From IMG/VR virus record IMGVR_UViG_3300035181_001055, positions 32,001-96,000 of that record: a DNA stretch of 64,000 bases, one strand, 5' to 3'. The stretch's first letter is position 1. The number at the start of each line of letters is the position of its first letter. A program made the position numbers and the translations under genes. The notes below the pieces were generated by a model, which had not been told where the DNA came from, made no database searches, and was given only the letters and a program-made list of their open reading frames with translations. This document shows positions 30,451 to 64,000 of the stretch, piece by piece. The stretch comes from a virus.

Positions 30451-32076
30451 GTGATCACGATGGCCGCTGTTTCTGATGTTCAGATTGATAGGACAGATCT
30501 ATGTTATAACGGGAATATCAAACTAAAGAAATCTGGTGTTAGCATCCCGTTCACGCAAGAACAAGTCGAAGAATATATCCGTTGCAAACGTGATATTGTA
30601 TATTTCATCAAGAATTATGTCAAGATCGTTTCTCTTGATCATGGACTAGTTCCGTTTGAATTGTATGATTTTCAAGAGGAAATGGTCAACACATTTCGAG
30701 ATAATCGTTATGTGATTTGTTTGCTTGCTCGACAGATGGGTAAAACGACAACGGTTGCTGCTTACTTGCTGTATGAGGCCATTTTCAAGAAAAATATGCG
30801 AATGGCGGTTTTAGCTAACAAAGGCGACACTGCTATAGAAATTCTCGATCGAATAAAGAAGATGTTTGAAGAACTGCCGTGGTTCTTAAAGCCAGGAGTT
30901 CAAGAATGGAATAAGAAATCGATTGAATTGAGTAATGGTTCGAAAATCATTTCTGCCGCAACAAGCTCAAGCTCCATTCGCGGTCAATCGATGAACATCA
31001 TATATCTCGATGAGCTTGCGTTCATTCAAAATGACGTCGAGTTCTTTGCTTCAACATACCCTGTCATTTCTTCAGGTAAGACGACTAAGGTTCTTATCAC
31101 ATCTACGCCTAACGGCATGAACCTTTTCTACAAGTTATGGGCTGACGCTGAAGCTGGTCGAAATAGTTTTGTTCCTAGGAAGTACTCTTGGCGTTACCAT
31201 CCGCATAGAGATGAAAAATGGAAAGAAGAAACGCTCAGAAACATTTCTCAGAAACAATTTGATCAAGAATATGAGCTGGAATTTTTTGGCAGCTCGGATA
31301 CACTTATAAGTGGCAACAAACTTCAGCAATTAACATTCATCGATCCTATTAAAACTGATACTATATTCAATGTTTATGAAGAGCCTGTTGAAGGGAAGAG
31401 TTATGTAGTGACAATTGATGTTTCTGAAGGGATTGGGAAAGACTATAGCGTAATCAATGTTTTCGACATTTCAATTCAGCCTTACAAGCAAGTCGCCGTT
31501 TACCGAAACAATATCATACCACCTTTGATGCTCGTTGATGTGGCGTATAAAATTTTGACTATGTATAATGAAGCTTATTGCATAGTTGAGTCGAATAGTA
31601 TCGGCAAAATTGTTGCTGACGGTCTTTACTTCGACCTAGAGTATGAGAATATGCTCACGTCAAAAGCAAAAGACGGAGAGAATGTGGTAAGCATCAGCGG
31701 AGAAGTTGTTGGGTTGAGGCAAACTAAAAAAACGAAGTTGATTGGTTGTAGTGCATTGAAAACTATGATTGAAAGCGGCACATTAGTAGTTACTGACTTC
31801 ATGACTGTGCAAGAACTTAGCACATTTGTTAAGCGTCATCATACATATCAAGCTGAGGACGGCAAAACAGATGACATAGTCATGACTTTGGTTTCGTTTT
31901 GCTGGTTCACCACTCAACCGTATTTCGAAGAACTGACTGATGTTAACGTTCGAGCTCTTATAAAGAGCAATTATATGAAAATGGAAGAAAACAATCATCT
32001 TATTTTCGGATTCTATGATGATGGGATTGATTACAATGATGGCGTGATCGAAGATCCTACGCTTTGGAAGAGTTGA
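30451..32076 (+). CDS. gp17: Terminase large subunit gp17
   Basis: CKRD.VYFIKNY.KIV.LD.GLVPF, Walker A LARQMGKTT, IYLDELAFI, STPNG.N.FY, D.SEGIG.DYS and DD.VM.LV.F.W. Confidence 0.97.
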   Translation: MITMAAVSDVQIDRTDLCYNGNIKLKKSGVSIPFTQEQVEEYIRCKRDIVYFIKNYVKIVSLDHGLVPFELYDFQEEMVNTFRDNRYVICLLARQMGKTTTVAAYLLYEAIFKKNMRMAVLANKGDTAIEILDRIKKMFEELPWFLKPGVQEWNKKSIELSNGSKIISAATSSSSIRGQSMNIIYLDELAFIQNDVEFFASTYPVISSGKTTKVLITSTPNGMNLFYKLWADAEAGRNSFVPRKYSWRYHPHRDEKWKEETLRNISQKQFDQEYELEFFGSSDTLISGNKLQQLTFIDPIKTDTIFNVYEEPVEGKSYVVTIDVSEGIGKDYSVINVFDISIQPYKQVAVYRNNIIPPLMLVDVAYKILTMYNEAYCIVESNSIGKIVADGLYFDLEYENMLTSKAKDGENVVSISGEVVGLRQTKKTKLIGCSALKTMIESGTLVVTDFMTVQELSTFVKRHHTYQAEDGKTDDIVMTLVSFCWFTTQPYFEELTDVNVRALIKSNYMKMEENNHLIFGFYDDGIDYNDGVIEDPTLWKS

Positions 32077-36339: not shown

Positions 36340-36990
36340 GTGGAAAAGAAAGATTTTGTAAAACAAGTTTCTAATAGTCTTATGCAAAATAATCCACTAG
36401 GATTTCATAAGATTGTTTCGAAGCGTTTGAAAGAACTGTTCAAGCAAAGAATGACACGTCTTGCTGAGGATTTCTCTAGCCAAGAAGTTGAAGCTGTGAC
36501 AAAAATCGAAAATGCTGCCAAGAGTTTTGGCGGAGATTCTGTTTATGATAACGGAGTTTTGATTGTCACATTGAGAGGCAAGCAAAGCGCCATGGGGTTT
36601 AGTGATTGGCTCGATGAATGCGAGTATGTAGATAGTTACGAAGCAGAAATTATAAGCAAATCTCCTTTGGATAAGTATTCTGAACAAGGTGAGGTTGACC
36701 TCGACTTCACTACCGATGAACAGACATTTGAATTCACGGTTTATCTTGAACCTGAATTGGTTCAATTTGAATTTGGCTATGATGAGCAAGAAATTGGGGA
36801 AAGTGCAAATGAAGAAAGCGAAAAAATGAAATGTGAGAAAGGATTTGTTTGGAATTCAAAATCCAAATCGTGTGAAAAGATTACTGAAGGTAGGCTGTCT
36901 ATTATTCGAAAGGCAGTTCGAGAGTCTTTGATGAAGAAGAGGAAAGACAAGGGCTATGTTTTCAGAGCTCGTGTTGTTAAAAAGAAGTAA
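36340..36990 (+). CDS. Prohead core protein (gp67/gp68-like position)
   Basis: Lies between gp20 and gp21, with an acidic middle and a basic C-terminus (SIIRKAVRESLMKKRK). Confidence 0.5.
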   Translation: MEKKDFVKQVSNSLMQNNPLGFHKIVSKRLKELFKQRMTRLAEDFSSQEVEAVTKIENAAKSFGGDSVYDNGVLIVTLRGKQSAMGFSDWLDECEYVDSYEAEIISKSPLDKYSEQGEVDLDFTTDEQTFEFTVYLEPELVQFEFGYDEQEIGESANEESEKMKCEKGFVWNSKSKSCEKITEGRLSIIRKAVRESLMKKRKDKGYVFRARVVKKK

Positions 36991-37015: not shown

Positions 37016-37669
37016 ATGAAACTACTAGTCGAACTAAATGACAATATCGACGTTCAAGTTATAACTGAAGGCGTCGGAGAAAATAAGCAGTATTACATTG
37101 AAGGCGTTTTTCTTCAAGGTAATATTAAGAATAAGAACGGCAGAATTTACCCTCGTGATGTTCTGCAGAATGAGACGAGAAGATATATTGATGAGTATGT
37201 GAAAACAAATAGAGCTCTGGGCGAATTAGGCCATCCGACGAATCCGAGCATCAATTTAGACCGTGTCTCGCACAAAATAATTAGCTTGAAAGAAGATGGT
37301 GATAATATTGTTGGTCGAGCAAAAATTATGGACACTCCTTTCGGCAAGATAGTGAAGAGTTTGATGGATGAAGGCGTCACTCTAGGCGTTAGCAGTCGAG
37401 GGCTTGGCAGTCTTCAGGAGAAAAATGGCGCTAAAGTTGTTTGTGATGATTTTCATCTCGTCACGGCAGCTGATATAGTTGCTGATCCATCTGCGCCAGA
37501 TGCGCTTGTAACTAATATCATGGAAAATAAAGAATGGGCATGGGAAAATGGTAAATTGGTTGAGCGTGAAGTTGAAATTAAAAAAGTTATAAATACTAGT
37601 GCTAGAAAGAAAAAACTGAATGAAGAAAATCTTATAAAGATTTTCGAATACATTCTGTCACAGGTTTAA
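37016..37669 (+). CDS. gp21: Prohead protease gp21
   Basis: YYIEGVFLQ..IKN.NGRIYP, RALGELGHP, VSHKI, LGVSSRG.GS and DIVADPSAPDA.V. Confidence 0.96.
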   Translation: MKLLVELNDNIDVQVITEGVGENKQYYIEGVFLQGNIKNKNGRIYPRDVLQNETRRYIDEYVKTNRALGELGHPTNPSINLDRVSHKIISLKEDGDNIVGRAKIMDTPFGKIVKSLMDEGVTLGVSSRGLGSLQEKNGAKVVCDDFHLVTAADIVADPSAPDALVTNIMENKEWAWENGKLVEREVEIKKVINTSARKKKLNEENLIKIFEYILSQV

Positions 37670-37678
37670 GGGGATGAT

Positions 37679-38407
37679 ATGAACATCACGAAAGAATTGA
37701 AAAGACATCTTGCAGGAGTCAATCTCTCTGAAGATACTTTGATTAAGCTCAAACTTATGATTGAGCGAGAAATCAAAGCTAGAACTAAATCATTGCGTGA
37801 AGAGATTGCGTCTACTAAGAGAGATCACAATCTTCAAATTAAGAGGATTAAGGCTAAAGCTGATGAGTATGGTCAATATATTGTGAATGAAATGGCTGAT
37901 AAAGTTGATGCCTATTCTGTATATGTGGTTGAGCAGTTCATTAAAGATAATAAAGAATCATTGGTTGAGCATAAAGAATATGTTCGAATGAAAAAGGTTT
38001 TTGACCGCGTTAAGCGTTCGTTTGAAGACGGCTTGTTTAAGCTCGATGAATCGTCTGCTCTAACAAAAATTCAAAATAAACTCGATGAGAGCACGAAAGC
38101 GTATAATAAGTTGTTTGAGGAATCCGTTGCTCTTAAGAAGAAGCTCGAAGAGCAGCAGTATGCTATTGTTTTTGAGAACCTGACAAAAGATCTCGCTGAC
38201 ACGCAACGCGAAAAGGTGTCGAAGCTCATTGAGAATGTTAGCTTCGCATCAGTGAATGAGTTTAAGCGTGGGGTTGAATTGATGATTGAAGAAATCGTCG
38301 CTAGCTCCAAGTCTGAAAAATTGAATGAGGTAGGGTCTAAAGATCCTAAGAAGGGCAAGCCTGTGCCTCAAAATGATAAGATGACTCAATATCTGAGTCA
38401 CCTTTGA
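37679..38407 (+). CDS. gp22: Prohead core scaffold gp22
   Basis: Helical and charged, with KVD.Y..YVVE.F..DN and L.DTQREK...LIE.V, between gp21 and gp23. Confidence 0.8.
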   Translation: MNITKELKRHLAGVNLSEDTLIKLKLMIEREIKARTKSLREEIASTKRDHNLQIKRIKAKADEYGQYIVNEMADKVDAYSVYVVEQFIKDNKESLVEHKEYVRMKKVFDRVKRSFEDGLFKLDESSALTKIQNKLDESTKAYNKLFEESVALKKKLEEQQYAIVFENLTKDLADTQREKVSKLIENVSFASVNEFKRGVELMIEEIVASSKSEKLNEVGSKDPKKGKPVPQNDKMTQYLSHL

Positions 38408-38415: not shown

Positions 38416-38452
38416 AATTTTGTTAAACCCTACCGAATTAAAGGAGAAGTAT

Positions 38453-39631
38453 ATGAGTCAAGTCCTGCTTGAAAAATGGGAAGCTCTGCTAGAGAGCGAT
38501 AAGGTCGAAAAGATCAACGATCCTTACAGAAAGAAAGTTACAGCACAGCTGCTCGAGAACCAAGAAAAGTTCCTGGCTGAAGTTGCCCAGACTACTACTG
38601 GCAATGTCCAGAACTGGGATCCTGTTCTAATCAGTCTCGTCCGCCGTATGGCGCCTAAGCTGATTGCGTATGATATCTGCGGCGTTCAGCCTATGACTGG
38701 CCCGACTGGATTGGTGTTCGCTCTGCGCTCGCATTATACCAACGCTGCTGGGGCAGAAGCTCTATTCAATGAATCTGATACTGGATTCTCGGGTGCTGGC
38801 ACGCATACAGGAGAAGATCCTTTTGCTGCTACATATTCTACTGGTTCTGGTGAAGCCACGGCTGACGGCGAGACCAATGTATGGAATTCGATGGCAATGA
38901 CCATCGAAAAAGCAAGTGTGACAGCAAAGACTCGTCAACTACGCGCTGATTACAGCCTTGAATTGGCTCAAGACCTTCGCGCTATCCATGGCCTGGATGC
39001 CGAAAACGAGCTTTCGAATATCCTTTCGAATGAAATTATCAGTGAAATCAATCGTGAAGTTGTTCGCACGATTTATACCATTGCTAAGCCTGGAGCTCAA
39101 TTCGCGTCTACTCCTGGCACATTTGATCTTCAAACTGATTCAGATGGTCGTTGGTCGGTTGAACGCTATAAGGGTCTCATGTTCGCAATTGAGCGCGATG
39201 CAAACGCCGTTTCTATCGAGACTCGACGCGGTAAAGGTAATATCCTAATCGTTTCTGCTGATGTTGCATCCGCTTTCGTCATGGCTGGCGTTCTTGATTA
39301 TAACCCTGTTCTTCAGGCCAATTCCAATCTCGAGGTTGATGCTACTGGAACGACCTATGCTGGTCAATTGGGTCGCTTCAAAGTGTTTATCGACCCATAT
39401 CTCGGAACCAATGCATACGTTGTTGGTTTCAAAGGCGCTAATGCCTATGACGCGGGCATGTTCTATTGCCCGTATGTTCCGCTGCAAATGGTTCGCGCTA
39501 CCAACGTTGATGCCTTCCAGCCAGCTATCGGGTTCAAGACTCGTTACGGTATGATTGCTAACCCGTTCACTTCTCTCAGCGCAGGTAGCAACGTTTACTA
39601 TCGTAAGGTCAAGGTGTTGAACTTGCACTAA
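38453..39631 (+). CDS. gp23: Major capsid protein gp23
   Basis: L.EKW..LLE, DPVLISLVRRMAP.LIAYDICGVQPMTGPTGL.FA.R, AK.RQL.A.YS.ELAQDL.A.HG.DA..EL..IL..EI..EINRE and GFKTRYG...NPF. Start chosen at the RBS-preceded ATG. Confidence 0.97.
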   Translation: MSQVLLEKWEALLESDKVEKINDPYRKKVTAQLLENQEKFLAEVAQTTTGNVQNWDPVLISLVRRMAPKLIAYDICGVQPMTGPTGLVFALRSHYTNAAGAEALFNESDTGFSGAGTHTGEDPFAATYSTGSGEATADGETNVWNSMAMTIEKASVTAKTRQLRADYSLELAQDLRAIHGLDAENELSNILSNEIISEINREVVRTIYTIAKPGAQFASTPGTFDLQTDSDGRWSVERYKGLMFAIERDANAVSIETRRGKGNILIVSADVASAFVMAGVLDYNPVLQANSNLEVDATGTTYAGQLGRFKVFIDPYLGTNAYVVGFKGANAYDAGMFYCPYVPLQMVRATNVDAFQPAIGFKTRYGMIANPFTSLSAGSNVYYRKVKVLNLH

Positions 39632-61232: not shown

Positions 61233-61240
61233 CATAAATA
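61233..61240 (+). promoter_or_regulatory. T4-type late promoter variant CATAAATA
   Basis: In the gap after gp41; the same variant precedes 1926, gp13 and the lysozyme. Confidence 0.55.
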
Positions 61241-61268
61241 ATCATATTCATAACAAAAAAGAAAAGAT

Positions 61269-62375
61269 ATGCTGAAATTTAAGCAGTTTCTGCTTTTTGA
61301 GGGCGGTAATGTAGTTATTGACGACCAAGGAGCGGATAGAATTGATTTAAGCAAAATAAACAGAACAGAAATTGTCAAAACTTTGACTGATGGTCTGAAA
61401 GCGATAAATCGCGCATTTGAAAAGCAGAATGGGTTGCCTCTTTGGAGCGACGAAATTTTCAAATCAAATCAATTTCTGAGTGGCAGTGCGTTTCATTTCT
61501 TTGATCTGAAGAATATTAAAGACGATGAATTTGTAAAAGTTAAGCCTTCTGTCGGGGATATTGACACTCAAGTTGATGGAACGCTCGACACTCTTATTGT
61601 CAATTTCTTGAATTCAAGCAAAGGTAAGAGATTTGGGCCATTAACTCTTATTGGGTTCAAAACTAGTCATGGTCAGCGTATAACATTATGGCGTTTGGAT
61701 AAATTTGATATGAATGTTCAGATTGACTTGGAGTTAGTTGAATATAGCGCTGATGGTAAGCCGACTCCTTGGTCACAATTCAGTCATTCGAGCTCTTGGA
61801 AAGACCTTAAACAAGGTTTGAAGGGTGTGGCTCACAAGTATCTTATGCAAGCAATAAATGCTCGCAGTTTACATGATTTGGTTATAAAAGCCAGGACACA
61901 GAGAAGCAAAGATAAGATTACGAAGAGCTCTCAGATGACGTTTTCGGTTACGAATGGGCTTCGTCAGCGTCTCGAGCCAGTTCTCGATTCTAAAGGCAAT
62001 CATGTGACAGTTAATGGGTTGCCTGCTTATCGTGAGCTTAGCACATCTGAAAGTCAAGGCAACACGGACTTGAATTATATTTTCAAGACTTATTTCGGCG
62101 AAGACCCTAATGAAAAAGACATTGAAAAAATGAGCAGTTTCATTGGTCTTATTGGATTGATTGAGAAATATTTCAGCAAAGAAGAACAAAAAATGGTCGT
62201 CGATGGGTTCATGCATAAATTGTGGGGTCCAGGCGCTCAAGGATTGTATAGAGGAGATAAAGAGCGAGACTATAATGAGAAAATGGCCATGGCAAATTAT
62301 CTTTTGAATTCTCTTGGTGGGTCTATCGATACTTACCTCAAAATGATTGAAACTTACTACAAAACATACGAATGA
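61269..62375 (+). CDS. Pol-beta-superfamily nucleotidyltransferase-like protein with capsid-targeting-like N-terminus
   Basis: LSGSA...KPSVGDIDTQV (GS...DxD) and a third Asp in VQIDL. N-terminus is MLKFKQFLLFE-GGN. Confidence 0.6.
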   Translation: MLKFKQFLLFEGGNVVIDDQGADRIDLSKINRTEIVKTLTDGLKAINRAFEKQNGLPLWSDEIFKSNQFLSGSAFHFFDLKNIKDDEFVKVKPSVGDIDTQVDGTLDTLIVNFLNSSKGKRFGPLTLIGFKTSHGQRITLWRLDKFDMNVQIDLELVEYSADGKPTPWSQFSHSSSWKDLKQGLKGVAHKYLMQAINARSLHDLVIKARTQRSKDKITKSSQMTFSVTNGLRQRLEPVLDSKGNHVTVNGLPAYRELSTSESQGNTDLNYIFKTYFGEDPNEKDIEKMSSFIGLIGLIEKYFSKEEQKMVVDGFMHKLWGPGAQGLYRGDKERDYNEKMAMANYLLNSLGGSIDTYLKMIETYYKTYE

Positions 62376-63268
62376 TAATTAGTTTCAAAGAATTCATTGC
62401 AGAGAGTGTTGCTACCACTACTCGTCAAGGTATCACTCATCTTCAGGACATGAAGCCTGAAGAATTTGTTTCGTGGATCAAAAGTGTAAAAGCTGCAGGC
62501 GGAGTTCTATCTAACTATAAAACGGTTATGAAGATAGATGGCCTAGGAGCTCGCTTTGGGCGTGATTCAAGCGGAAAGATATTCTTTGAGGGTAGCAGAA
62601 CTGGTCCAATTTTTGACAGCGGAGCTTTTAGCGCACATGCCATAGCTAAAGGTGCCTCGGATGAAATTGTGCTTAGGGCTAAGCATTATGACGATATGCT
62701 CGAACTTTTCAAAACTGCTGATTTCATGAAAGCGGTGCCTAATGATACGAAGGTTGTTTGCGAAATCTTTTACAATCCAATGGCAAAAGAAGAAGAGGAT
62801 GGCATTACCTTCGTCACCGTCAAGTATGACAAGACTAAATTGGGTAGTTTAATGAGTATCATGCCCTATACTGTTCTTCAGGCTAGTACTGGTTTAGAAC
62901 ACCCTGATAAGAAAAAAATTCTCGATGATTTATACAAGAAAAGCAACGAGAAAATTAAAATCATTGATCCTAATCTGAAGATGGGGTCAATTGATATTTC
63001 TGGTATAATAAACACCGTTGCTACTATTGAAGATGGCGCTCTTGAAATACTAAAAAGTAGAAAAGCTATTGATAGAGATGCAAAGCAAAATATTTTAGAT
63101 ATCATTCAAAAAGCAAAAAATGATTTAGCTTCTTATTTGCTTGCACATCCAGGCATTGAAGATAAATTCAAGTTAGGTCAAAATATTGAAGGCATTGTTA
63201 TACACGTAAATGATAAGCCGTTCAAAATAACGACCGACGAATTCAAAGCTAGTAAGAGGAAATCATGA
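62372..63268 (+). CDS. RNA ligase/covalent nucleotidyltransferase-like protein with capsid-targeting-like N-terminus
   Basis: KIDG (motif I), CEIF (III), EGIVI (IV) and FKI (V). N-terminus is MIISFKEFIAE. Confidence 0.55.
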   Translation: MIISFKEFIAESVATTTRQGITHLQDMKPEEFVSWIKSVKAAGGVLSNYKTVMKIDGLGARFGRDSSGKIFFEGSRTGPIFDSGAFSAHAIAKGASDEIVLRAKHYDDMLELFKTADFMKAVPNDTKVVCEIFYNPMAKEEEDGITFVTVKYDKTKLGSLMSIMPYTVLQASTGLEHPDKKKILDDLYKKSNEKIKIIDPNLKMGSIDISGIINTVATIEDGALEILKSRKAIDRDAKQNILDIIQKAKNDLASYLLAHPGIEDKFKLGQNIEGIVIHVNDKPFKITTDEFKASKRKS

Positions 63269-64000
63269 CAGACGAGAAAACGGAATATCCTAAGCCTGGA
63301 AAAAAGAAAGTTCAAATCTTCATGGGACGGATGCAACCCATTCATTTGGGCCATAAGAAAATTATTGATAGTATGAGAAATCCTGTCATTGTCTTGGTCA
63401 AAGGCGCCAAGTCAAGTGAGGATAAGACGAAAAATCCATTTAGTGTTGATTATCAAATTAAACTTATTAAAAAGATTGAACCTCATGCAGAAATCATGGT
63501 TGCTTCAACTGGTTATCTTCCTTCTATCATAAACCAACTCAGAGAGAAGGGCGAGGAGCCAGATGCGGTTTATGCTGGAGCTGACCGAATTTCTGGATAT
63601 AAGAAGCAGATTGATGATGCGAACTCCAAATTGCCGAATGAATATAAATATCATGTGGAGTTCAAAGAAACTGAGCGTGTAACAAGCGCAACCACCGTTC
63701 GCAATGCTATTCGTTCGAATAACATTGACGAGTTTAAGAGAAACATGCCTAAGGAACTATGGGGAGAATTTGACACCATGAAAAAGCTAATCGGAGAAAA
63801 AATCAATATCGGAATCAAGTCATTTGAAGAATGGCTCGCTGAAGAAGAAGAAGCCGAAAAAGATGATGAAGAAAATGTGAATAAGAGCGACCAAGTTGCG
63901 AAAAAAGATTCGCCGATCGGTAACGGTAAAGTCGCAAGACGTAAAGATGATGAGGATGACGACGAAGAAGATGATGATGATGATGATGATGATGAGCTGA
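63265..64000 (+). CDS. HIGH-superfamily cytidylyltransferase/NMNAT-like protein, 3'-truncated (absent from ORF track)
   Basis: ATG 63265 overlaps the upstream TGA and the frame is open to the window end. FMGRMQPIHLGH, KNPF, AGADR and SATTVR motifs, then an acidic tail. Confidence 0.8.
   Translation, partial: MTDEKTEYPKPGKKKVQIFMGRMQPIHLGHKKIIDSMRNPVIVLVKGAKSSEDKTKNPFSVDYQIKLIKKIEPHAEIMVASTGYLPSIINQLREKGEEPDAVYAGADRISGYKKQIDDANSKLPNEYKYHVEFKETERVTSATTVRNAIRSNNIDEFKRNMPKELWGEFDTMKKLIGEKINIGIKSFEEWLAEEEEAEKDDEENVNKSDQVAKKDSPIGNGKVARRKDDEDDDEEDDDDDDDDEL

Follow-up and report, generated by a model that had tools for sequence, protein, structure and literature searches.

Three linked nucleotidyl-transfer enzymes with candidate capsid-targeting tags in a T4-like phage

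Three unrelated nucleotidyl-transfer enzymes, encoded back to back by a T4-like phage, each carry a short peptide that resembles the capsid-targeting sequence (CTS) of the T4 internal proteins. Are these enzymes cargo of the phage head, and if so what would they do in the next cell? The locus lies at the end of the window analysed here, a stretch of 64,000 nucleotides (positions 32,001 to 96,000) from the IMG/VR record IMGVR_UViG_3300035181_001055, which is 75% complete. The reading that we develop below, and to which we give an even chance overall, is that the locus encodes a late-expressed, capsid-tagged and packaged three-enzyme module that tailors and seals polynucleotide ends. Its features are as follows.

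61233..61240, + strand: late-promoter-like word CATAAATA, 28 nt 5' of the ORF1 ATG and inside the 40-nt gap after the gp41 stop.
61269..62375, + strand: ORF1, 368 aa, Pol-beta-superfamily nucleotidyltransferase (from the predicted model and invariant residues).
61269..61301, + strand: ORF1 leader MLKFKQFLLFE, a CTS-like tag ending in L-x-E (from sequence and disorder in the model).
62372..63268, + strand: ORF2, 298 aa, RNA-ligase-type (covalent lysine) nucleotidyltransferase domain without an OB domain (from the model and motifs).
62372..62404, + strand: ORF2 leader MIISFKEFIAE, whose last five residues are those of the T4 CTS MKTYQEFIAE.
63265..64000, + strand: ORF3, HIGH-motif nucleotidyltransferase nearest to NadM and archaeal NMNATs (from PF01467 and profile matches).
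63814..63846, + strand: C-terminal tag copy IKSFEEWLAEE of ORF3, followed by a D/E-rich tail (from sequence).

The block follows the gp41 helicase gene in the order CATAAATA, ORF1, ORF2, ORF3. ORF3 crosses the end of the window; its full length is 305 aa and its stop lies at window coordinate 64182. An initial annotation of this DNA had described a late promoter followed by three ATGA-coupled ORFs, and this description holds: the word is present, both ORF junctions are ATGA overlaps, and 13 of 26 related loci have NATAAATA in the 120 nt before ORF1, where ~0.03 per locus would be expected. By itself CATAAATA carries little weight, because about five copies per strand are expected from composition. 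Nor is it identical to the canonical TATAAATA that lies upstream of the gp22, gp23, ART and P-loop genes of the same genome, which counts against the late-promoter reading. A DNA-level search of a phage collection matched the helicase gene alone, so no close cultured relative is at hand.

The three ORFs very probably form one functional unit. Of 40 IMG/VR loci, nearly all have ORF1 next to ORF2, and all three genes stand side by side in ~40 related contigs of viruses as well as in cultured phages of Xanthomonas, Stenotrophomonas and Vibrio, always directly upstream of the gp26 baseplate hub gene. Phages X1 and Moby have the trio, and Va1 has an NT together with a ligase-like-HIGH fusion, the ligase-like part of which was identified by its KTDG motif alone, without a profile match. 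The ORF1 family comprises 737 clusters at 50% identity; 150 of its representatives were listed, 147 of them new, and 41 of these 147 are NT-LIG(-HIGH) fusions, which reach 2078 aa. Fusions of ORF2 to ORF3 also occur and retain the tag, two of them ending in ...FLSFRNWLNFLE. The fusions have one tag each, as in a 1056-aa triple fusion that carries a single leader. Catalytic residues of all three enzymes are invariant across hundreds of clusters. Judged from these sequence comparisons, the trio is a widespread, fused unit, a point that goes beyond the initial annotation.

The two leaders and the internal motif had been described as capsid-targeting-like, and all are found; a strict form of the tag pattern stands at the start of 3 of the 270 long ORFs of the genome, against ~0.4 expected. 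The T4 record agrees with the sequence cited for comparison: ipII and ipIII open with MKTYQEFIAE, and ipI opens with MKTFKEF. Residues 4 and 7 of the T4 CTS control targeting, residues 8 and 10 control processing, and gp21 cleaves after L/I-x-E (PMC9026906). Position statistics for the families examined here give F at 4, F/Y/W at 7, L/I at 8 and E at 10-11. The aromatic targeting positions are F4 and F7 in ORF1 and, shifted by one residue, F5 and F8 in ORF2; each protein has a processing-type L/I-x-E site (ORF1, L-F-E↓G; ORF2, I-A-E↓S; ORF3, L-A-E↓E). Of 120 members of the ORF1 family, 95 retain the tag, as do 92 of 120 in the ORF2 family, where 7 more have it shifted by one residue; these counts come from crude regular expressions and are lower bounds because variants are missed and wrongly called starts confuse the pattern.

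The peptide is also separable from the enzymes and portable between proteins. Both leaders are disordered in the predicted models. Eight of 120 ORF1 homologues begin MGGN (MGGNV...) right where the leader would end, the homologues from X1, Moby and Va1 do likewise, and the X1 homologue of ORF2 is without a leader. Because these cultured relatives have the same enzymes without tags, the chemistry of the trio does not depend on packaging, and the enzymes are presumably able to act in the cytoplasm. The exact leader MK[ST]FKEF.xE, for its part, opens at least 120 ORFs in viral contigs, drawn from 35 unrelated families; among the contigs with this leader that were tested, a gp21-type protease was found in both complete records and in one of three fragmentary ones. 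A clamp-binding motif of the T4 SLDFLF type was considered as the identity of the tag and rejected in view of its spacing and of the agreement between the tag and the CTS positions.

ORF3 carries its copy of the tag at a different place. Within its family the tag is N-terminal only in 38 members, C-terminal only in 25 and at both ends in none (Fisher p = 3e-12). By these counts, the internal motif of ORF3 represents a true second location for the tag, at the C-terminus; this too goes beyond the initial annotation. To our knowledge the T4 CTS has been shown to work at the N-terminus only, which counts against a C-terminal or internal tag.

The same genome encodes the head machinery on which such a tag would act.

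37016..37669, + strand: gp21-type prohead protease, the presumed tag-processing enzyme (tblastn with T4 gp21: 41% identity, E 7e-29).
37679..38407, + strand: 242-aa ORF at the position of the gp22 scaffolding-core gene, with TATAAATA upstream (by position only).
38420..39631, + strand: major capsid protein, gp23 homologue (tblastn with T4 gp23: E 4e-62).

A tblastn search with T4 gp22 gave no match in the genome. The predicted maturation site of the capsid protein, EKFLAE↓V, resembles the ends of the tags, and its FLAE↓V aligns with FLTE↓A of T4. Four properties of a T4-type CTS are found together here: the aromatic positions, the L/I-x-E site, a gp21 with a gp22-type core (gp22 by position), and a separable, portable peptide. 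Elsewhere in the genome a 1327-aa PARP-like protein begins with a leader-like stretch, contains SFKEFLRE internally and has a TATAAATA of its own.

A homologue of ORF1 has been detected in virions. Gene 1-56 of Campylobacter phage IBB_35 was identified by mass spectrometry in CsCl-purified virions, with 17% coverage (PMC3322345 Table S2), and is an ORF1 homologue with a profile E of 1e-69. Its leader, MKLSELMFILE, is a loose variant of the tag only, and its N-terminus in the virions was not mapped. The IBB_35 data are a single low-resolution virion proteome, in which contaminants are possible; our literature search found no virion proteome for the Stenotrophomonas or Xanthomonas relatives. Comparison strongly supports the capsid-targeting-like character first ascribed to the leaders, through their modularity, the four CTS positions, the single tag per polypeptide, the gp21 and capsid sites and the virion homologue. 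We consider it probable that the tag is a capsid-targeting signal.

The same observations bear on whether the shared peptide could dock on some other hub instead (replication, repair or a multi-enzyme scaffold), so that the trio would act unpackaged in the producing cell, for example in late repair of tRNA or phage nucleic acid. We think this unlikely. The conserved positions are the very ones mapped for T4 capsid targeting and gp21 cleavage, the leader opens unrelated families of small proteins, in the manner of the T4 internal proteins, the tag ends mirror the capsid protein cleavage site, one ORF1 homologue is a virion protein, and the setting is a late promoter with adjoining baseplate genes. 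What would suit a hub is that the tag sits at either protein end, like a short linear motif, that the cultured relatives have untagged versions, and that the tag is common to three enzymes that are fused in other phages, where co-assembly could be its purpose.

Under the packaging model, the trio would be transcribed late from a T4-type late promoter, and the tag would dock each protein on the prohead scaffolding core. The gp21-type protease would then cut after the tag Glu, removing the N-terminal leaders of ORF1 and ORF2 and, in ORF3, splitting off the acidic tail that comes after the tag; T4 gp67 has a similar acidic tail. Like T4 IPI-III and Alt, the enzymes would stay inside the head and pass into the next cell together with the DNA. 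There a 3'-OH would be extended with nucleotides by ORF1, and ORF2 would activate a 5'-phosphate by adenylylation and close the break; the part of ORF3 would be to produce or consume an adenylylated cofactor, NAD+ for example. We infer packaging, cleavage, injection and substrate alike, and regard it as evenly balanced whether the proteins are injected and active early. End repair of RNA or DNA is the chemistry that we think likeliest, though at less than even odds. More doubtful is the general form of the idea, in which T4-like phages of many environments would inject a kit of extender, sealer and NMNAT-like enzyme that repairs or caps RNA or incoming DNA before phage expression and so pre-empts nuclease-based immunity.

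Two T4 systems are the closest precedents. Like the T4 internal proteins, the trio has a ~10-residue N-terminal peptide (M-K/I-T/S-F/Y-K/Q-E/Q-F-I/L-x-E) in which the same four key positions are kept, unrelated bodies after the tag, a late-gene context and a gp21-type protease in the phage. The internal proteins, however, are small and basic, whereas the trio consists of three enzymes of 33-41 kDa, the tag can also be C-terminal or internal, and packaging is a prediction. As read here, the trio also resembles Alt, an enzyme that is taken up into the prohead core, has both ends trimmed by gp21 (PMC9026906) and is injected for the start of infection. Alt differs in being an R-S-E ADP-ribosyltransferase without a CTS of the internal-protein type, while the trio are nucleotidyl-transfer enzymes that have such a tag.

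The chemistry can be approached through the folds, whose assignment for all three ORFs is, in our view, almost certainly correct. The predicted model of ORF1 (pLDDT 93; residues 1-12 below 50) finds only Pol-beta-type nucleotidyltransferases among its best structural matches (TUT7 at Z 7.9; Trf4, OAS2 and Pol beta/lambda/mu at ~Z 7). The GS...DID...D motif from which this fold had been predicted is invariant in 49 homologues, as G72 S73, D97 x D99 and D153 (hG[GS], DxD and the third carboxylate). By motif and palm fold ORF1 belongs to the Pol-beta nucleotidyltransferase superfamily, at modest structural Z scores of 7.9 or below. It matches phrog_19290. Against Pfam it has no match at E up to 1, and so none to RlaP PF10127; RlaP-like it may be called by gene association only. 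Single-sequence searches with ORF1 and ORF2 (Pfam, NCBIfam, PADLOC and PDB by sequence) returned nothing useful.

ORF2 also yields a confident model (pLDDT 91.6; 40 for residues 1-10). Its top Foldseek matches are all RNA ligases, and by VIA it reaches Z 10.5 with Naegleria Rnl5 (190 aa, rmsd 3.6) and Z ~9 with T4 Rnl1 and Rnl2. Structure prediction, proposed at the outset as a check, has in this way returned enzymatic folds for both ORF1 and ORF2. The ligase-type motifs first noted in ORF2 (KIDG/E/EGIVI/FK) are invariant in 48 homologues (K54 x D56 G57, E131, E273 G274 and K285) and correspond to motifs I (KxDG), III, IV (EG) and V (K) of the covalent nucleotidyltransferase (ligase/capping enzyme) superfamily. 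Its 298 residues make up the NTase domain and a helical insert, without a second domain (OB or the extra domain of Rnl1, Rnl2 or Rnl5), and it has no match to Pfam RNA_ligase or DNA_ligase; for these two reasons we treat it as a member of the superfamily and do not file it under a named Rnl family. OB or C-terminal domains confer substrate specificity on known ligases, and their lack in ORF2 counts against our reading of the module, as do the modest Z scores of ORF1 and its failure to match RlaP.

In the Atlas, the neighbours of ORF2 by feature and by structure are DUF6267 clusters, some of them with a PF01467 fusion, and DUF6267 is a viral Pfam family that is often fused to CTP_transf_like; the DUF6267 HMM itself matches neither ORF2 nor any of 47 aligned homologues, each tested singly. 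On the 75%-complete record the sole match of the Rnl2 profile (PF09414) is the gp30-type ligase gene, below cut-off. The Rnl1 profile (PF09511) finds no match here, but none in control genomes either. We rejected ORF2 as the replicative DNA ligase, an ordinary gp30-type ligase being present at 10.1 kb.

A Pol-beta-type enzyme next to a ligase recalls two kinds of repair pair. Pol X with a ligase is one: ASFV has Pol X and a ligase, and bacterial LigD a polymerase and a ligase. The likeness is that of a small Pol-beta-fold polymerase with a nick-sealing ligase, and the alignments of ORF1 with Pol beta, lambda and mu and with ASFV Pol X span ~160-190 residues (Z 6.5-7.2). The differences are that these scores are modest, that ORF1 has no 8-kDa lyase domain and that ORF2 is nearer to RNA than to DNA ligases. 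In the other, the Pol-beta nucleotidyltransferase RlaP acts jointly with RNA ligase in RNA repair, extending damaged RNA 3' ends by 1-2 nucleotides, after which they are sealed (PMC12776372, PMC7824862). As in this pair of bacteria and jumbo phages, a Pol-beta-superfamily nucleotidyltransferase is here coupled genetically to an ATP-dependent RNA-ligase-type enzyme, although ORF1 lacks the PF10127 match, profiles do not identify ORF2 as Rnl1 or Rnl2, and there are a third, HIGH-motif enzyme and the capsid tags.

It is this third enzyme that could turn the reading from polynucleotide ends to NAD+. ORF3 matches PF01467 at E 2e-7, in keeping with the HIGH-type fold called from its motif GRMQPIHLGH, and G21 R22 Q24 P25 H27 H30 and S141 A142 T143 V145 R146 are invariant, save H27 and T143, which are nearly so. 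With NadM and the archaeal NMNATs (phage NAD+ salvage, cf. KVP40 NatV) it shares the signature GRxQPxHxGH and a C-terminal SxTxxR, here S-A-T-x-V-R, and these are its best PDB profile matches: NadM 2qjt at E 1.4e-6 and archaeal NMNATs at ~1e-5, with PPAT weaker. These matches cover ~55 residues in the N-terminal third, however, and ORF3 reaches 28-30 bits against NCBIfam NMNAT cut-offs of 127-181, in a match limited to residues 18-77. It is also unlike NadM and its relatives in having no Nudix or kinase partner domain; its tightest fusion partner is the ligase-type domain instead, and we know of no NAD+ salvage route that needs one. We hold it improbable, given this, that the module is built around NAD+, with ORF3 as a true NMNAT that would replenish NAD+ for the tagged PARP-type ADP-ribosyltransferase of the phage or counter NAD-depleting defences, with ORF1 and ORF2 handling NAD- or ADP-ribose-linked nucleic-acid ends, even though its nearest solved relatives are of this kind, the genome does encode the PARP-like protein, and KptA/Tpt1 links RNA repair and NAD+ (PMC9503650).

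Injected enzymes might also be weapons of host takeover, nucleotidylating or adenylylating host RNAs or proteins to shut the host down. The Pol-beta fold of ORF1 is common to the MenT, TglT and AbiEii toxins, and T4 Alt is an injected modifying enzyme. MenT-type toxins block tRNA 3' ends; a nucleotidyltransferase fused to a ligase-type partner suits end joining more than blocking, and the trio has no PADLOC or toxin-family matches. In 2017 Iyer et al. reportedly described polyvalent proteins of phages and conjugative elements, with several enzymatic domains delivered along with the DNA. The long NT-LIG-HIGH relatives of the trio, single polypeptides of 900-2078 aa with the extra domains Amidoligase_2 and DUF6934, resemble such injected proteins, while here the domains are separate proteins, each tagged. 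A takeover weapon seems to us quite improbable. T4 RNA ligase 1 (gp63) also promotes tail-fibre attachment. A comparable morphogenetic role, with virion association through help in baseplate or tail assembly, would fit the constant place of the block before gp26 and the dual role of gp63 (PMC3322345), but it is most improbable for three different enzymes with invariant catalytic residues and a head-type tag whose gp21-type cleavage site indicates the head rather than the tail.

Packaged and injected proteins act ahead of any phage gene expression. Few such proteins are known to us, and in T4 we know of an assigned role for Alt and IPI only. If our reading of the tag is true, this very common module is a candidate first-minute counter-defence or repair system, and the T4 CTS lets injected cargo be predicted from sequence in T4-like phages that have not been cultured; if the tag also works at either end, the whole injected proteome of such phages would be readable from sequence. 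A C-terminal tag, one per polypeptide, would if true extend the rules by which foreign proteins are designed for loading into T4 heads.

One further association concerns the neighbourhood of the block. QueE is encoded two genes upstream, and a link between the trio and these 7-deazaguanine genes was considered and dropped, since the synteny simply marks where the replication module borders on the baseplate module, and the trio has its own promoter word.

The phage is T4-like, and in its genome (source record 126,753 bp, 41.7% G+C, ~75% complete; the window covers bases 32001-96000) the portal, gp21 protease and gp23 capsid protein of T4 have homologues. The three nucleotidyl-transfer genes lie between a helicase gene and a baseplate hub gene, and ATGA overlaps join them to one another:

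gp41 helicase gene, directly upstream of ORF1
Promoter word CATAAATA, in the 40-nt gap between the helicase stop and ORF1
61269-62375, ORF1, Pol-beta-type nucleotidyltransferase (NT), 368 aa
62372-63268, ORF2, RNA-ligase-type protein (LIG), 298 aa
63265 to beyond the window end (genome 96182), ORF3, HIGH-motif enzyme (HIGH), 305 aa, with a long Asp/Glu tail at its end
gp26 baseplate hub gene, directly downstream of the trio (PF12322, E 6e-60)

The promoter word is the T4 consensus with one base changed; 13 of 26 related loci have NATAAATA upstream of ORF1. Across the whole genome CATAAATA occurs nine times on the + strand and never on the - strand, and TATAAATA occurs ten times on + and once on -. 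The latter closely precedes the gp23 gene, the gene in the gp22 position and genes for a P-loop and a PARP-like protein described below. That several copies closely precede late structural genes suggests that both words serve the phage as late promoters. Between the portal and prohead protease genes, the position of T4 gp67/gp68, lies a 216-aa ORF (window 36340-36990) whose middle part is acidic and whose C-terminus is basic; tblastn found no match between it and T4 gp67 or gp68.

Searches with single sequences put a name to ORF3 (PF01467, E 2e-7; its NMNAT matches were weak) but to neither ORF1 nor ORF2. We therefore aligned metagenomic homologues of these two proteins and modelled their structures. 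The ORF2 model (mean pLDDT 91.6) has only RNA ligases as its top Foldseek matches. It aligns with the adenylyltransferase domain of Naegleria Rnl5 (Z 10.5, 190 residues, rmsd 3.6) and with T4 Rnl1 and Rnl2 at Z about 9 (VIA-align), and the invariant columns of its family are the ligase motifs K54-x-D56-G57, E131, E273-G274 and K285. The model has neither an OB domain nor any other second domain. For ORF1 (mean pLDDT 93.0), the leading structural matches are all Pol-beta-superfamily transferases: TUT7 at Z 7.9, Trf4, OAS2 and GLD-2 at about Z 7.2-7.4, and Pol beta, lambda, mu, TdT and ASFV Pol X at Z 6.5-7.2 (160-190 aligned residues). Z values of this size are modest. The family invariants are G72-S73, the hG[GS] motif, and the carboxylate triad D97, D99 and D153. 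The ORF3 family profile first matches NadM (2qjt, E 1.4e-6) and archaeal NMNATs in the PDB, in each case over only ~55 N-terminal residues; its PPAT match is weaker, but full-length. ORF3 itself falls far below the NCBIfam NMNAT cut-offs. GRxQPxHxGH and SATxVR are invariant or nearly so in its family. Models, structural matches, profiles and invariant motifs thus bear out the initial annotation, which had proposed Pol-beta, ligase-type and HIGH-type folds.

Judging by gene order and fusions, the three genes form one unit. In nearly all of 40 related IMG/VR loci ORF2 directly follows ORF1, and ORF3 comes next, either immediately or past an inserted ~1 kb gene; the block typically sits between QueE-gp41 and gp26. 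Fusions of ORF2 with ORF3, 482-522 aa long, are common, and one locus encodes a natural 1056-aa single chain that contains the three domains in unchanged order (L170:1578-4748). Searching 1.8 billion representative proteins with the profile gave an ORF1 family of 737 clusters. Among the 150 matches listed, 147 representatives were newly returned, and 41 of these are NT-LIG or NT-LIG-HIGH fusions, up to 2078 aa long. Some giant fusions (for example P0327, P0328 and P0334) extend the NT-LIG core with Amidoligase_2, DUF6934 or another NTP_transf_2 domain, and such architectures look like those of polyvalent proteins. The trio is complete in Xanthomonas phage X1 and Stenotrophomonas phage Moby, which add one further gene to it. 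In Vibrio phage Va1 the nucleotidyltransferase is accompanied by a protein in which a ligase-like part is fused to a HIGH domain; the ligase-like part has no profile match and is assigned from its KTDG motif only. Campylobacter Firehammervirus phages have the nucleotidyltransferase only. The inserted genes differ: one subgroup has an unassigned 289-aa gene between ORF2 and ORF3 (L135:8145-9014 and its counterparts in L136-L141), and X1 and Moby have a different, unrelated ~320-aa gene between ORF1 and ORF2.

The leaders of ORF1 (MLKFKQFLLFE) and ORF2 (MIISFKEFIAE) resemble the capsid targeting sequence (CTS) of T4 internal proteins. In the models only ORF1 residues 1-12 and ORF2 residues 1-10 have low confidence. 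Among 120 ORF1-family homologues, 95 share F4, an aromatic residue (F/Y/W) at position 7 and, for the most part, L/I at 8, with E at 10 or 11 immediately before a conserved GGNV. Eight homologues lack the leader and start MGGN; the proteins of X1, Moby and Va1 do likewise. The ORF2 family has the same pattern in 92 of 120 members, and in seven more, including ORF2 of the window, it is shifted by one residue; the X1 homologue starts exactly at the leader end. In T4, MKTYQEFIAE opens ipII and ipIII and MKTFKEF opens ipI. Some homologues carry MKTFKEFLAE or ...KTYQQFIAE. Targeting by the T4 CTS is governed by positions 4 and 7 and processing by positions 8 and 10, and gp21 cleaves after L/I-x-E (PMC9026906, a review of Black's work). 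These four governing positions are the four conserved positions in the leaders of the ORF1 and ORF2 families. The predicted tag ends EFIAE/S, FLLFE/G and WLAE/E look like the phage's own predicted capsid maturation site, since the T4 capsid protein cleavage site FLTE/A aligns with EKFLAE/V of its capsid protein (slashes mark known or predicted cleavage).

A homologue of ORF1 has been found in virions:

HM246720 39251-40417, gene 1-56 of Campylobacter phage vB_CcoM-IBB_35, 44.4 kDa

Gene 1-56 matches the ORF1 family profile over its full length (E 1.3e-69). Its product is among 38 proteins identified in purified virions by ESI-MS/MS, with 17% coverage (PMC3322345 Tables S1, S2), a single datum from a gel-based study that detected the protein as such, without terminal mapping. 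It starts MKLSELMFILE-GGNT, a looser form of the leader (MxLxELF...) shared with many long NT-LIG fusions.

The internal IKSFEEWLAEE of ORF3 is evidently not coincidental. We counted tag positions in 72 ORF3-family members having both domain anchors. In 38 the tag is N-terminal only (for example MKTFKDFINE...) and the protein stops just behind the domain; 25 more open directly with the domain, their one tag (...LSFxxWLxEE) being C-terminal and leading into a tail. No member carries a tag at both ends (Fisher p = 3e-12). The pattern missed the remaining nine, most of which show one tag by eye. ORF2-ORF3 fusions keep the C-terminal tag and lack the N-terminal leader (two end ...FLSFRNWLNFLE), the triple fusion has one N-terminal leader, and X1 encodes the tag and tail as an ORF of their own (76 aa) behind the untagged transferase. 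As a rule, then, a polypeptide would carry a single tag, at whichever end, and the C-terminal copy would be a putative CTS. Behind this tag (window 63847-64000, continuing to genome 96182) ORF3 has a box, …KSDQVAKKDSPIGNGKVARRK…, kept in relatives as NxxxKDxPLGKxVRRKKK, and then ~90 residues of almost pure Asp/Glu. This acidic tail recalls that of gp67, a core protein of the T4 prohead.

Among the long ORFs of the genome, the strict leader pattern opens only three: ORF1, ORF2 and the first protein below; a looser pattern adds the second. Both lie outside the window, in L005, another stretch of the same genome:

L005:7168-8652 (genome 115168-116652), P-loop NTPase-like protein, 494 aa, weak AAA_16, phrog_1250
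L005:1295-5278 (genome 109295-113278), PARP-like protein, 1327 aa, PARP-type (H-Y-E) domain

Because the P-loop protein starts MFSFKKWLTEA and has TATAAATA 46 nt upstream, it joins the trio as the phage's fourth candidate for tagged cargo. The PARP-like protein has a leader-like N-terminus, MRFEDFIKHLQE, its own TATAAATA just upstream, and a second tag-like SFKEFLRE ~95 residues before the C-terminus; T4 Alt, too, is processed at both termini (PMC9026906).

Such leaders extend well beyond this phage. Scanning IMG/VR for ORFs that open MK[ST]FKEF[ILMF]xE returned at least 120 stretches, against ~2 expected by chance (a rough estimate). Of 85 matches examined, 63 lie at most 15 codons from an upstream stop. 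With the leader removed, 81 proteins fall into at least 35 unrelated clusters, including ART-like proteins and a HIGH-motif enzyme. Of the families in these loci (L012-L091), one has 25 members among the matches listed, of 160-240 aa and starting ...SSLSRIKSKSDKGG; others are small ART-like proteins (…YYHGT…, …LYHGTSS…). A gp21-type protease (PF03420) is present in both complete large records tested and in one of three fragmentary ones. T4 internal proteins present the same picture, being diverse with only the CTS in common (PMC3012670).

Cultured relatives carry untagged trios. Between trio and gp26, X1 encodes a 138-aa protein (L001:8444-8860) that starts with a tag-like MIDFDTWLYED, from which X1 would use the tag on other proteins despite its untagged trio; the Moby homologue (L002:7194-7595), in the same place, has no tag.

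What might the trio do? The RlaP-Rnl RNA repair pair, in which the nucleotidyltransferase lengthens damaged RNA 3' ends by 1-2 nucleotides ahead of sealing (PMC12776372, PMC7824862), is a characterised precedent for coupling a Pol-beta nucleotidyltransferase with an RNA-ligase-type enzyme. Because ORF1 gave no match to the RlaP profile, the likeness is one of logic, not of family membership. Repair of DNA nicks or gaps is as possible as RNA repair, given the Pol X-like alignment of ORF1 and the matches to nick-sealing ligases. A role centred on NAD+ also stays in play, given the NMNAT-like ORF3 and the tagged PARP-like protein (PMC9503650). End extension and sealing is, tentatively, the most likely chemistry of the trio.
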